A program made the position numbers and the translations under genes. Source: Escherichia coli (GTDB lineage Bacteria > Pseudomonadota > Gammaproteobacteria > Enterobacterales > Enterobacteriaceae). From it: a DNA stretch of 64,000 bases. Under the pieces are notes generated by a model. It had not been told where the DNA came from. It was given only the letters and a program-made list of their open reading frames with translations, and made no database searches. Where the stretch lies: assembly GCF_003334255.1 (NCBI RefSeq), contig NZ_QOWU01000016.1. The stretch is one strand, 5' to 3'. Shown piece by piece: positions 3,093-56,204 of the stretch (its first letter is position 1; the number at the start of each line of letters is the position of its first letter).

Positions 3093-3200
3093 TTACTTCC
3101 GCTTGTTCAGCCAGTTCACGATCATACTGGCAAGAATGCCAGCAATGACCGGAGCCGCTAAATCATGCCAGAAGGCCATGCCCAGCTCTGCGAACGTCAT
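3093..3200 (-). CDS. ldrD: Type I toxin LdrD (35 aa small toxic membrane peptide)
   Basis: Last 35 codons of ORF 3093..3368 read MTFAELGMAFWHDLAAPVIAGILASMIVNWLNKRK, the Ldr peptide; ATG (cat on + strand) at 3198-3200. Confidence 0.85.
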   Translation of the reverse strand: MTFAELGMAFWHDLAAPVIAGILASMIVNWLNKRK

Positions 3201-3248
3201 ATAGCCGCCTGTGTTGTAATGACAACGTTTCGCGGCTATTCTTGAGTG

Positions 3249-3314
3249 GTCTAGAGTCAAGATTAGCCCCCGTGGTGTTGTCAGGTGCATACCTGCAACG
3301 TGCGGGGGTTTTCT
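3249..3314 (+). ncRNA. rdlD: Rdl antisense RNA (antitoxin of ldrD), about 66 nt ending in an intrinsic terminator
   Basis: 66-nt stretch gtctagagtcaagattagcccccgtgg...cgggggttttct on the strand opposite the ldrD 5' region; cccccg/cggggg stem plus U-tract; boundaries recalled from the Ldr/Rdl family, not mapped. Confidence 0.55.
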
Positions 3315-3675
3315 CTCTCCAGCAACCAATGCCACCAGGGATAAAGCCCCCGCAACATTGCGCCTCACCGGAACCTTTCCGGCTTGCCGCTGATTCTACG
3401 ATTGCTTTTTACTGTCAGCACCCGGCAATCTTCCTCATTGCGCGATGCCTTCCAGCTTAATTTCTTTATTTGCAATAGTTGCAGTTCATATCCGGGCTGA
3501 CTCCAGACTGGTAGTGAAATGCGCAATTTTGTAGAATTGCGCCTCCTCGCGACCTCCCCAGTGAATCTGTTGCCTCATTTTTTACATACTGCGTATTCGA
3601 CTTCTCCACCTGTTGCGCAAGAGAAACTGGGTTTATTCATTTTTGCGAGGCCGACTTCTTTCTGGACAGGACTTT

Positions 3676-4947
3676 ATGCAGCACAACACACTATCGAAAC
3701 ACAATCAGAAATTGCCGTTTACACGCTACGACTTCGGCTGGGTTTTATTATGCATAGGCATGGCGATTGGTGCCGGAACCGTGCTGATGCCAGTACAAAT
3801 TGGCTTGAAGGGAATTTGGGTATTTATTACCGCAGCGATCATTGCTTATCCTGCCACCTGGGTAGTGCAGGACATTTATTTAAAAACCCTTTCTGAAAGC
3901 GATTCCTGTAATGACTACACCGATATTATCAGTCATTACCTGGGGAAGAACTGGGGAATTTTCCTCGGGGTTATCTACTTTTTGATGATTATCCACGGGA
4001 TTTTTATCTACTCTCTCTCCGTGGTTTTCGACAGCGCCTCGTACCTGAAAACCTTCGGTTTAACCGATGCCGATCTTTCACAATCTCTACTTTATAAAGT
4101 CGCTATTTTCGCCGTACTGGTGGCGATTGCGTCTGGTGGTGAACGATTACTGTTTAAGATTTCCGGGCCAATGGTGGTGGTCAAAGTAGGGATTATTGTC
4201 GTGTTCGGTTTTGCGATGATCCCGCACTGGAATTTCGCCAATATAACCGCCTTCCCGCAAGCCTCCGTCTTTTTCCGCGATGTCTTGCTTACCATTCCAT
4301 TTTGCTTCTTTTCTGCAGTATTTATTCAGGTACTTAACCCAATGAATATTGCCTATCGTAAACGGGAAGCGGATAAAGTACTGGCAACCCGGCTCGCGCT
4401 GCGTACCCACCGAATTAGTTATATCACGCTCATCGCGGTGATCCTGTTTTTTGCCTTTTCGTTTACCTTCTCAATTAGCCACGAAGAAGCCGTTTCTGCC
4501 TTTGAACAAAATATCTCAGCACTGGCGCTGGCCGCGCAGGTGATCCCTGGGCATATCATTCATATCACCTCTACGGTGCTTAATATCTTTGCCGTACTGA
4601 CCGCATTCTTTGGCATTTATCTCGGTTTCCACGAGGCCATTAAAGGCATTATTCTCAATCTGTTAAGCCGAATTATTGATACCAAGAAAATTAACTCACG
4701 CGTGCTGACTCTGGCGATCTGCGCTTTTATCGTCATTACGTTGACGATTTGGGTTTCGTTTCGTGTATCGGTGCTGGTGTTCTTTCAGTTGGGAAGCCCG
4801 TTATATGGTATTGTGTCGTGCCTCATTCCGTTTTTCCTGATCTATAAAGTCGCACAACTGGAAAAACTTCGCGGATTTAAAGCCTGGCTGATTCTGCTGT
4901 ACGGCATTTTGCTATGCTTGTCGCCACTGTTGAAGCTGATTGAGTAA
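3676..4947 (+). CDS. yhjV: Putative amino-acid (Ser/Thr-type HAAAP family) transporter YhjV, 423 aa
   Basis: Polytopic membrane ORF; ATG at 3676 gives [11 protein letters not shown]... matching YhjV length (ORF track extends 21 codons further upstream). Confidence 0.85.
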
Positions 4948-13911: not shown

Positions 13912-15120
13912 TTAAAGGGAGCCATGCGCCTCACGCAACATTTTCTGCTCTGGCTGACGAATCGTCGTAGAAAGCGCCAATGACAGAATCAGCAGGGCGA
14001 AAATCACGTAGAAGGTCACATAGAAGCCGCCAAACAGTGAGGCGATAATCGAACCACAAATGCTACCGATACCGAAACCGAGATAAATCACACCGTAGTT
14101 TTTCGCCAGGTTATTGAGGCCAAAGAACTCACTGACCAGTGACGGAAAGACGGTAATAGTGCCGCCAAAGTTAAATGCCACGCAGGCAATCGCTGCAAAG
14201 AACGTCACTGCATTCAATGGTGCAAACAGCAGGGCCGCCATACCCACCAGCGATATCACCTGACCAATGGTAATAACACGGATACGGGCGATTTTGTCAG
14301 ACAGAATACCCAGCACCAGACGACCTGAAAGGTTGGCGATGGAAATAACAGTGACTGCATTGGCTGCGGAAACCACATCAAGGTGTGCCAGACTTTGGGC
14401 GATATCTTTCGCTACCCCAATCACGTACAGGCCGCTCATGCAGGCGGTCAGGAACATTACCGCTAACATCCAGTACTGCGGTTTACGCATCGACTCTGCC
14501 AGCGTGTAATCTTTCTCCACCACACCATTGCTGGTTTTCACTTCCTGTTTTGGTGCGTCTTTCATTAACGTTGCGCCGAAAACAATCATCAACAGCGCAA
14601 TCGCTCCCCAAATCACAAAGGTTTTTTCCAGACCGACCGTTTCCAGCAGCTGCGTGTCGATAAATTTGAAACCCAGGCTACCCAGACCATAAGAACCGAT
14701 AGCGAACGCGGAGATCAGACCTTTACGCTCCGGGAACCACTTCACACAGTTAGAGAGCGTCAGCAGATAACCCGCGCCATCTGCCAGTCCCACCAGCACA
14801 CCGGCGCTTAACCACAGCATCATCAGGTTGTCAGAATGCGCTGTCAGGAAGAAGCCTAATCCCAGCAAAATGCCGGAAGCCATGGTGACGCGTTTAACGC
14901 CAAAACGTTCCTGTAATTTGCCCGCAACAGAAGACGAAATTGCCAGCCCCAGACTTAACAAGCCGAAAGAGAAAGCGACCTGGCTTACCGGCGCATCCAG
15001 CTTGGCGGAAAGCGCGCCATTAAACAGGCTCCAGGTATAAACCGACCCCAGCGCAAACTGGGTAATGATAGTACCGATGAGTGTCAGCCAGCGGGTACGC
15101 TGATAATTTGAAGGTGTCAT
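13912..15120 (-). CDS. yhjX: Pyruvate-inducible MFS transporter YhjX (402 aa)
   Basis: ATG at 15118-15120 gives MTPSNYQRTRWLTLIGTIITQF...; 12-TM MFS-like hydropathy. Confidence 0.9.
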   Translation of the reverse strand: MTPSNYQRTRWLTLIGTIITQFALGSVYTWSLFNGALSAKLDAPVSQVAFSFGLLSLGLAISSSVAGKLQERFGVKRVTMASGILLGLGFFLTAHSDNLMMLWLSAGVLVGLADGAGYLLTLSNCVKWFPERKGLISAFAIGSYGLGSLGFKFIDTQLLETVGLEKTFVIWGAIALLMIVFGATLMKDAPKQEVKTSNGVVEKDYTLAESMRKPQYWMLAVMFLTACMSGLYVIGVAKDIAQSLAHLDVVSAANAVTVISIANLSGRLVLGILSDKIARIRVITIGQVISLVGMAALLFAPLNAVTFFAAIACVAFNFGGTITVFPSLVSEFFGLNNLAKNYGVIYLGFGIGSICGSIIASLFGGFYVTFYVIFALLILSLALSTTIRQPEQKMLREAHGSL

Positions 15121-15203
15121 GGCAGTATTCCTGCAGTAATAAAAAGGAAAAATCTCTGCCGACAACCATAACGAAGTGCACTTTATGCCTGGGGAAAAAC
15201 GGC

Positions 15204-15234
15204 ATGAAATGCCATCAGAACGGAATGAAATGCC
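15204..15234 (-). promoter_or_regulatory. Likely YpdB (LytTR response regulator) binding site in the yhjX promoter: two GGCATTTCAT direct repeats separated by 11 bp
   Basis: On the minus strand GGCATTTCAT-tccgttctgat-GGCATTTCAT, about 85-115 bp upstream of the yhjX start; matches the YpdB site architecture as recalled. Confidence 0.6.
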
Positions 15235-15348
15235 TTAGTTCAGGAATGAATGACGCGACAATTATTCACCAAATTTATTATTTGGTAAGTTAGCACCCAC
15301 TATTGCCACAACTATTGTTATTTAATGGTTTCAATTGTGACTGTTACG

Positions 15349-16047
15349 TTAAAATCTGGCGCTAACCCCCATCGTATACAGATAGTCGCTATTATTAGTG
15401 GTATTTTCTGCCTGAGTTAGCGCGGCATAGGCGGCAATATTTTGATTGAGCAACATATCAGCGCCTACGGTGACATCCAGCCAGTTGCCGTTCTGGTTTG
15501 TCGCCGTCATCCGGCTCAGGCCTGATTGCGCCTTCCAGATATTCTCGCCAAATTGCTGGTTATAGCTGATTTGCGCCCAGGGTCGGAGATCGCCAAGCCG
15601 GGAGTCAACACGCCAGCCTAAGGTACTCACGCTGGCATGCCATAACGGATCGGTCAGCGTGGTAGTACTGTCGCCAAACTCGTTATACATCGAGGTGGTT
15701 GTGCCATCGTAATGTAATGCCGCGACCGGGCCGGTTGTAACCTGTTCATATAAAGGAAAATTCCAGCCCATACTCATACTGCTGGTCACATCCACAGGGG
15801 TTTCTTCCGCCAGATTGACTTCCAGTCCCAGCGCCCTTTGGCTACTTTGAATACGTTGCGACAAAATATCGTTGTAATCAGGTTGATGATCACTATCCCA
15901 GGTGTAACGCTCTGTGGAAAGTCCGGGTTGCGTATCAACGATATATTCTTGTTGCCAGGCGTAAGCTGTGTTGAGAAAAAAGGCACTGATTACCACGCTC
16001 GCCAGCAGGCTTAGCTGCCAGCGACCACCGCTTTTTTTTATGATCAT
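15349..16047 (-). CDS. yhjY: Uncharacterised protein YhjY (232 aa), predicted outer-membrane beta-barrel / autotransporter-like
   Basis: ATG at 16045-16047; signal-peptide-like N-terminus; C-terminal aromatic residue (…MGVSARF). Confidence 0.8.
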   Translation of the reverse strand: MIIKKSGGRWQLSLLASVVISAFFLNTAYAWQQEYIVDTQPGLSTERYTWDSDHQPDYNDILSQRIQSSQRALGLEVNLAEETPVDVTSSMSMGWNFPLYEQVTTGPVAALHYDGTTTSMYNEFGDSTTTLTDPLWHASVSTLGWRVDSRLGDLRPWAQISYNQQFGENIWKAQSGLSRMTATNQNGNWLDVTVGADMLLNQNIAAYAALTQAENTTNNSDYLYTMGVSARF

Positions 16048-38015: not shown

Positions 38016-38840
38016 TTACATATGCGCCGCGATTAACCGTTGGTTATCCTGGTACATTGCGAACAGGTAGTTGTTATAACTCTTCCCTTTGGTCGAGTAG
38101 CCCTTCAGCTTGTGAATCATCGCTGTGGCAGTCACTTCCTGATCCGCTTTACGCAGCTGCGCACGCGATTTACGGAACGAAGAGTAAGCCGGGTGCGTAT
38201 TCAGGTTAGTGACATAGGCGCTCACCGATTCTTTGACAGAACTAAACTGTGAGTACCCTTTCACTTTACCTGGCGCATTGGTACAACGTCCTTTCATGCA
38301 TTTCATGCCGAACAGGTTGTTGTTGTTGCGCGCCAGCTTCGACGTTCCCCAACCGCTTTCTGCTGCAGCCATCGTCGCCACCATACTGGTGGGGATAATG
38401 TCTACGCGTTCAAGCAAGGTATTCCACGGGATTTTTCGCGTATTACCGGACCACTTCACCTTGTAGCGTTTGGCGATGTCTTTCAGACGCGCACGCTCAG
38501 CAGGTGACCATTGGCCCTGATACTGTTTTGAAATGAGCCAGTTACGTTCCGCAGTAATGGCCGCATTTTGGCTGGTAATGTAAGGCATTACGGTCCGGAG
38601 AAACGCCTTTTTCCTTGGTGTTCCGGAAGGGTATTTTCGCAAATCAGGAAGTGAACTACTCTTTGCACTATTGCGAGAATACTCTTGTTTACTGCTTACC
38701 TGTTTATTACTAGCTTTAGTTAAGTGGGACTTTTGACTCGCTGTTGTTGTGTGCGTCTTCGCTAACACCTCACTCGAAAACACCAGAGTGAGTAACATAA
38801 GAATCATCGCCCCATATCGTCGTATGGGAGTCAAAATCAT
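38016..38840 (-). CDS. bax: Putative glucosaminidase Bax (274 aa)
   Basis: 274-aa ORF with signal-anchor N-terminus. Confidence 0.85.
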   Translation of the reverse strand: MILTPIRRYGAMILMLLTLVFSSEVLAKTHTTTASQKSHLTKASNKQVSSKQEYSRNSAKSSSLPDLRKYPSGTPRKKAFLRTVMPYITSQNAAITAERNWLISKQYQGQWSPAERARLKDIAKRYKVKWSGNTRKIPWNTLLERVDIIPTSMVATMAAAESGWGTSKLARNNNNLFGMKCMKGRCTNAPGKVKGYSQFSSVKESVSAYVTNLNTHPAYSSFRKSRAQLRKADQEVTATAMIHKLKGYSTKGKSYNNYLFAMYQDNQRLIAAHM

Positions 38841-56091: not shown

Positions 56092-56204
56092 ATTTCCCTC
56101 AAAGAATATAAAAAAGAACAATTAACGCATATTATGAAATGCCATGATGCAGTGCAATTTCCTTATTTATATAACGACATATTGTTTTTTATATACTTTC
56201 TTAA

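Follow-up and report, generated by a model that had tools for sequence, protein, structure and literature searches.

Pyruvate-responsive LytTR systems and their operators

The binding site of YpdB in the yhjX promoter of Escherichia coli K-12 was reportedly described by Fried, Behr and Jung in 2013. According to Behr, Heermann and Jung (2016; PMC4847170), YpdB has no direct target other than yhjX, and both YpdB and the phosphomimetic YpdB-D53E are monomers in solution. On the intact promoter fragment two binding events were resolved, one with a KD of about 1.2 nM and slow on/off rates and the other with a KD of 21 nM and fast on/off rates; mutation of site B left a single event with a KD of 23 nM, and mutation of site A abolished all binding of YpdB-D53E. 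Site A is described as a high-affinity nucleation site, and site B as a site that binds about 10-fold less tightly, with rapid on/off rates, and that requires an occupied A, the differences between the two being ascribed to flanking nucleotides and curvature. In the 'AB-BA' model of these authors, binding is sequential and cooperative, A and then B, and it was proposed that occupancy of B recruits RNA polymerase and that rapid dissociation from B clears the promoter (PMC4847170).

The YpdA/YpdB system is now named PyrS/PyrR (PMC7730263). Its target yhjX is induced 678-fold by 3 mM pyruvate (PMC7660256), and there is no yhjX promoter activity in the uropathogen UTI89 when btsS and ypdB are both mutated (PMC9765748). 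The YpdB motif is reported to be conserved in several other genera, in which E. coli reporters are functional, and has been reported solely in species with YpdA/YpdB (PMC5552118).

LytTR sites in general consist of two repeats of 9-11 nt with spacers of 11-13 nt (PMC4847170). Among Firmicutes, the AgrA P2/P3, ComE, PlnC/D and VirR operators are similar in having two direct repeats of 9-11 nt with 11-13-nt spacers, though they belong to other organisms and regulators and have other sequences, and no consensus is common between the regulators (PMC4847170). Dimerisation is usually ascribed to those regulators, in contrast to activated YpdB, which is monomeric in solution and binds sequentially. 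A paralogous LytS/LytTR system is that of BtsR, whose site in the btsT/yjiY promoter is likewise a direct repeat, with a spacer of 13 bp. It differs in its recognition sequence (ACCRCTYA), its target gene, its high pyruvate affinity and its locus, which lies outside the window (the 64,000-nt stretch of E. coli DNA analysed here).

The repeat pair upstream of yhjX

The window carries yhjX on its minus strand, the gene name being the one that RefSeq gives in E. coli genomes with 99.6-100% identity to the promoter region here. Its protein product scores 478 bits (cutoff 375) against TIGR00890, the MFS model of the oxalate/formate antiporter family. It also scores above the NCBIfam equivalog cutoff for 'L-lactate MFS transporter' (SfMCT; 342 bits vs 320), and many RefSeq genomes label the yhjX product L-lactate MFS transporter. 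A 261-bp promoter region finds matches in 5423 of 5426 complete E. coli genomes, all chromosomal and all between yhjY and yhjX; the gene order in E. coli HS is bisC, yiaC, tag, yhjY, yhjX, eptB. The gene and the elements of the repeat pair are as follows.

13912..15120, minus strand: yhjX CDS, 402 aa, the regulated gene (ORF, RefSeq annotation and TIGR00890)
15225..15234, minus strand: distal repeat GGCATTTCAT, site A of Behr et al. 2016 (sequence and mutated oligonucleotide)
15222-15233, minus strand: conserved 12-bp core of site A, GCATTTCATTCC (cross-species comparison)
15214..15224, minus strand: 11-nt spacer TCCGTTCTGAT between A and B (sequence)
15204..15213, minus strand: proximal repeat GGCATTTCAT, site B (sequence and mutated oligonucleotide)
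15201-15212, minus strand: conserved core of site B, GCATTTCATGCC (cross-species comparison)
15200..15257, minus strand: the 58 native nt of the PyhjX SPR oligonucleotide (exact match, 0 expected)

Read on the minus strand from 15234 to 15204, the element is GGCATTTCAT-TCCGTTCTGAT-GGCATTTCAT, that is, the two perfect 10-bp direct repeats that an earlier note on this DNA had claimed. The pair is located upstream of yhjX and on its coding strand, 84-114 nt 5' of the ATG (15120-15118, minus strand), in good agreement with the 85-115 bp estimated in that note. With 10 + 11 + 10 nt the layout is that of LytTR operators in general. The repetition also extends beyond 10 bp, GGCATTTCATkCCGTT agreeing at 15 of 16 positions on the coding strand, and a repeat search returns A and B as 21-nt tandem units that are 76% identical.

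The earlier note had further attributed the repeats to YpdB, and the published sequences bear this out. Window positions 15200-15257 equal the PyhjX SPR oligonucleotide of PMC4847170 over 58/58 nt, and the mutated oligonucleotides in Table 1 of that paper assign the distal repeat as A and the proximal repeat as B. In the passage of PMC4847170 that describes it, the oligonucleotide is said to resemble every nucleotide protected in DNase I footprints; the footprint limits used below are second-hand, being those of this description. By the same description, the published YpdB-bound oligonucleotide falls here and not elsewhere. The element is the same as the YpdB site of the K-12 yhjX promoter: motif, 11-bp spacer and gene context agree, and the site itself is identical.

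Direct repeats of this size might also arise by chance, or be a relic of a 21-bp tandem duplication without a regulatory role, and the units do resemble 21-nt tandem copies. Exact 10-mer direct repeats within 40 bp are in fact common in the window, where 10 k-mer hits, forming 8 separate events, were found against 2.7 k-mer hits expected from Markov-1 simulations. Because the bare repeat structure is not unusual here, the weight of the observation lies in the identity of the motif and its location. The paired motif (<=3 mismatches) occurs once in the 64-kb window against 0.01 expected, its sequence is that of a site that has been bound and mutated experimentally (PMC4847170), and across 27 genus-level groups the blocks have been kept and the spacers have diverged (see below). 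What goes beyond chance is the identity to the published motif, the position in the yhjX promoter and the conservation, and an accidental or relic origin is extremely improbable. Two single copies elsewhere in the window, GGCATTTCAT at 56134 and GCATTTCATGCC at 38298, are chance-like and have no partner at 21 bp; the latter overlaps an opposite-strand ORF of 274 aa.

A different possibility is that the paralogous LytTR regulator BtsR (YehT) uses the site, instead of or besides YpdB. The BtsSR and YpdAB systems are interconnected (PMC5552118), and in UPEC the induction of yhjX requires BtsS together with YpdB. That cross-talk, however, takes place at the kinase-to-YpdB step and not at the DNA (PMC9765748), the BtsR site ACCGCTTA-N13-ACCACTCA is unrelated in sequence (PMC4847170, Table 1), and a btsT/yjiY fragment served as the negative control for YpdB (PMC4847170), all of which makes a role for BtsR at this site very unlikely. 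Judged by its sequence, the 31-bp element is almost certainly the published YpdB (PyrR) operator that activates yhjX, the experiments having been done in K-12 and UTI89. The presence of the regulator in the source strain is assumed from the species, ypdA and ypdB lying outside the 64-kb window.

Conservation of the operator among Enterobacteriaceae

The operator was followed across species by a protein-guided scan with one genome per species, which yielded 80 Enterobacteriaceae loci (YhjX identity 84-99%) in 27 genus-level groups, including Escherichia, Citrobacter, Enterobacter, Klebsiella oxytoca, Kluyvera, Buttiauxella, Kosakonia, Lelliottia, Cedecea and Yokenella. Loci were chosen by the YhjX protein, so that the motif was not presupposed. 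A pair with an 11-nt spacer was present in 80/80 of them, with 0-5 mismatches over the 20 motif positions and a distance of 67-104 nt from its end to the ATG; the pair that scored best was, in some loci, a third, more distal unit together with site A. One accession, CACSKA010000004.1, labelled Chryseobacterium sp. 18061, has an Enterobacteriaceae-type yhjX locus whose promoter is nearly identical to that of Citrobacter sp. 18056 from the same project, and this assembly is probably mislabelled or contaminated.

The alignment resolves three conserved blocks exactly 21 bp apart, the third unit GtCaTTCATtCC, A GCAtTTCATTCC and B GCAnTTCATGCC, with diverged spacers between them. Genus-weighted information content, calculated from an anchored alignment, was distributed as follows, in order from the distal end.

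Upstream flank: 0.52 bits per position
Third unit: 1.62 bits per position
Spacer between third unit and site A: 0.36 bits per position
Site A: 1.84 bits per position over the 13-mer
Spacer between A and B, variable portion: 0.58 bits per position
Site B: 1.66 bits per position

Of the A-B spacer, the first 3-5 nt (TCCgt) belong to the conserved A block and the remainder varies between genera. An unanchored MAFFT alignment of 27 genus representatives is gap-free in this region and has the same invariant columns.

The conserved unit does not coincide exactly with the repeat as published. The first G of the published 10-mer is variable (G 0.56 and T 0.44 in A; G 0.30 and T 0.55 in B), and the three bases that follow the 10-mer are essentially invariant, TCC in A and GCC in B. 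The comparison thus points to a conserved recognition unit of 12 bp, GCAtTTCATkCC, that is shifted relative to the published 10-mer, with the first G out and kCC in. Of the 80 species loci, 71 have a single exact match, on the yhjX strand, to a pattern of all three units with 27 fixed positions; the window holds 1 match against 0.00 expected.

A third phased unit

Distal to site A, and completing this pattern, lies the following element.

15243..15255, minus strand: third unit CGTCATTCATTCC, consensus nGyCrTTCATtCC (alignment and information content)

The earlier note had mentioned a third degenerate copy 9 bp beyond the pair. The position stands, ggaatgaatg (plus strand, 15243-15252) beginning 9 nt past 15234, but 'degenerate' does not, since the alignment argues for a conserved unit and not a decaying copy, apparently under constraint as strong as that on A and B. 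The TTCATTCC of the third unit is exactly 21 bp upstream of the copy in site A, and TTCATtCC is shared with site A at exactly this distance in all species. At the same time the unit keeps a consensus of its own, G-(T/C)-C-(A/G)-TTCAT-t-CC, with GyCr at positions 2-5 vs GCAt in A and B. Among the 27 genus representatives aligned with MAFFT without anchoring, its columns G47, T51-T55 and C57 do not vary. The oligonucleotide used for BtsR (PMC4847170) can likewise be read as three phased copies, GCCGCTCA-N12-ACCGCTTA-N13-ACCACTCA, of which the last two are the named site.

The third unit probably serves as a cooperative, non-autonomous YpdB subsite, or as a DNA segment wrapped by the complex; that it is not autonomous follows from the loss of all binding once A is mutated. 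The rather doubtful alternative is that YpdB binds A and B only, and that the third unit, and maybe an inverted fourth copy downstream of B (see below), are conserved for another factor or for curvature, the candidate factors being the alpha C-terminal domain of RNA polymerase, a nucleoid protein or an unidentified regulator. The SPR events, two on the wild type, one on the B mutant and none on the A mutant, fit such a two-site scheme, as do the third unit's own variant at positions 2-5 and the credit given in PMC4847170 to flanking nucleotides and curvature for the differences between A and B. Set against this are the invariant TTCATtCC common to the third unit and A, at exactly 21 bp in all species, and the position of the third unit inside the 58-nt oligonucleotide that PMC4847170, in its description of the construct, derives from the footprint, that is, within the stretch described there as protected by YpdB from DNase I. 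A protection of 58 bp, if that description is followed, is also long for two LytTR domains. Moreover, the third unit begins only 7 nt from the biotin-tethered end of the SPR oligonucleotide, and the tethered end may have masked binding to it.

The predicted core promoter

For the promoter that the three units face, the alignment suggests the following landmarks.

15190..15200, minus strand: tract gTTTTnccCc after site B (1.25 bits per position; T102-T104 and C109 invariant)
15165..15170, minus strand: putative -10 hexamer TATGGT (invariant columns)
15156..15158, minus strand: conserved CAG, 7-8 nt after the putative -10 (C143 and A144 invariant, G145 nearly so)

In the MAFFT alignment of 27 genus representatives, T131, A132 and T136 (15170, 15169 and 15165, hexamer positions 1, 2 and 6) are invariant and T133 is nearly so, the hexamer reading TATCGT or TATTGT elsewhere. 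This TAtnnT hexamer at 15170-15165 is probably the -10, and transcription probably starts in the region of the CAG at 15158-15156, with +1 near 15157. A -10 at this position places B, A and the third unit with centres near -50, -71 and -92; from a +1 at about 15157 the 13-mer of B would run from -56 to -44, that of A from -77 to -65 and that of the third unit from -98 to -86. Since 21 bp corresponds to two helical turns, all three would lie on one face of the DNA. The tract after B would fall at about -43 to -33, its T-tract at about -42 to -38.

No TTGACA-like -35 hexamer is present, the sequence at 17-bp spacing from the putative -10 being CCCAGG, and a consensus scan of the region returned no canonical sigma-70 promoter at a matching place and no terminator. 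The missing canonical promoter fits an activator-dependent promoter, and the predicted layout is the one expected of that type, with the proximal activator just upstream of the -35. The AgrA, ComE, PlnC/D and VirR operators are located just upstream of a weak -35. No mapped yhjX start site and no described third site were found in the papers that a literature search covered.

Two other promoter assignments were considered. CATAAA/TAAAGT (15185-15180) as the -10, with B over the -35, is less likely, TAAAGT being unconserved in Enterobacter-type promoters; TATGGT is preferred because for it alone T1, A2 and T6 are invariant across genera. The combination TTACCA-16-AATAAT (15288..15261) was rejected as the regulated promoter, such a match being found once against 1.2 expected and being unconserved between genera. 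An AT-rich palindrome, ACCAAATAATAAATTTGGT (15268-15286, minus strand), overlaps this combination; it is broken by E. coli polymorphisms and unconserved in other genera.

The leader of yhjX contains the palindromic TATTACTGCAGGAATA (15125-15141, minus strand) around the Shine-Dalgarno AGGA. Across genera the CAGGA of the leader is kept; it is similar to a CsrA GGA site, and CsrA-dependent control of yhjX has been reported in the literature. A reading of the region as an RNA element found no encouragement in an Rfam scan of 15050-15420, where nothing came near any gathering score.

Additional conserved sequences in the intergenic region

Two further sequences, one on either side of the phased units, recur in many of the promoters.

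15178..15189, plus strand: inverted fourth copy GCACTTTATGCC, 1 mismatch to the 12-bp core GCANTTCATKCC (motif scan)
15289..15304, minus strand: upstream block AATAGTGGGTGCTAAC, consensus GATAGYnnnnACTAAC (alignment and motif scan)

The inverted fourth copy lies 11 nt downstream of B. At a fixed offset of 10-11 nt an inverted copy with <=2 mismatches occurs in 35 of 81 sequences, and the exact GGCATGAAATGC in 9, whereas a same-orientation control over the same 60 nt gave mostly 3-4 mismatches; it is missing from promoters of the Enterobacter, Lelliottia and Klebsiella type. Relative to the predicted promoter it would occupy about -32 to -21. It lies outside the oligonucleotide described in PMC4847170 as footprint-derived, a further point in favour of a factor other than YpdB acting there. 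A conserved array larger than the published two-repeat site can be tentatively envisaged, comprising three co-oriented YpdB-type units in a strict 21-bp phase, the third of them cooperative, together with an inverted fourth unit that is added in many genera and could bring about shut-off.

The upstream block is more widespread, being present with <=3 mismatches in 66 of 81 sequences, where its distance upstream of the third unit is either 26-27 or 34-38 nt; these two classes are about 10 bp, or one helical turn, apart. The block falls downstream of yhjY in the non-coding stretch that leads to the YpdB units, and the window has no second good copy; in Klebsiella oxytoca and Enterobacter cloacae, too, yhjY is the gene upstream. 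We know of no regulator with the consensus GATAGYnnnnACTAAC. An RNA hairpin around the block was considered and set aside, the apparent pairings of its flanks being in inconsistent registers.

Variation within E. coli

The 228-bp spacer between yhjY and yhjX is fairly polymorphic among complete E. coli genomes (92.7-100% identity), and it can therefore be used as a within-species footprint. Eight E. coli alleles differ at many positions in the upstream half of the spacer and at few from the third unit to the ATG. Of 5426 complete genomes, 3560 share a 74-bp core (15189-15262) at 100% identity, K-12 substrain AG100 among them, so that up to about one third deviate somewhere within it; outside the site, a single base of the intergenic region distinguishes the source strain from strain HS. 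The repeats are thus conserved in E. coli yhjX promoters, as they are in the 80 Enterobacteriaceae species loci.

The variants in the sampled alleles are few. In the third unit's 13-mer the first base (15255) is changed from C to A; in site A the first base (15234) is changed from G to T, which gives TGCATTTCAT; the spacer has A to G at 15235; and the tract that follows site B has C to G. Each of the four positions varies between genera too. The description of the repeats as perfect accordingly holds for the window and for most genomes but not for the sampled variant alleles with TGCATTTCAT at the distal repeat: alleles with two or three mismatches, including that of strain 536, have no perfect 10-mer at A and yet an intact 12-bp core. 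Since the position varies freely between genera, the G-to-T variant of site A in sampled B2-type strains such as 536 is unlikely to matter. A common haplotype, found in 536, SCU-204 and Ecol_732 among others, combines TGCATTTCAT at A with C to A at 15255.

A more drastic change is seen in E. coli DX6 (NZ_CP126345.1; extracted locus 3155-3925), where an IS1 has inserted inside site B, at about 15205-15214 of the window, with a 9-bp target duplication, TGGCATTTC. Through the insertion about 0.8 kb lies between the core promoter and the two distal units, site A and the third unit. Some 24 further genomes are matched by the 261-bp promoter query alone (5423 genomes for this query vs 5399 for the 74-bp core), and there may be more disrupted alleles among them.

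A working model for yhjX activation

The published binding data and the layout together give the following course of events. The YpdA/PyrS kinase senses extracellular pyruvate, and phosphorylated YpdB (PyrR), a LytTR-type regulator, then activates yhjX. An activated YpdB monomer binds site A (15225-15234) first and with high affinity, its occupancy letting a second YpdB molecule bind site B (15204-15213) with fast on/off rates. Occupancy of B would recruit RNA polymerase to a promoter with a TATGGT -10 (15170-15165) and no usable -35, and rapid dissociation would clear the promoter. Where an inverted fourth unit overlaps the core promoter (at about -32 to -21), its filling could lead to an occupancy-dependent shut-off, adding to the pulse-like 'AB-BA' behaviour.

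Significance

The element is already known in its sequence, position, protein partner and mechanism, and the comparative details (the 12-bp core, the third unit, the predicted -10, the fourth copy and the upstream block) refine this picture and do not change it. The locus is an instance of a real operator that a first-pass reader could recover from raw sequence. What has been added is comparative, namely a shifted 12-bp unit, a probably tolerated variant of site A and a constrained third phased unit, and these details would be useful for YpdB/PyrR position weight matrices, for pyruvate biosensors built on PyhjX and for models of how LytTR proteins assemble on DNA.
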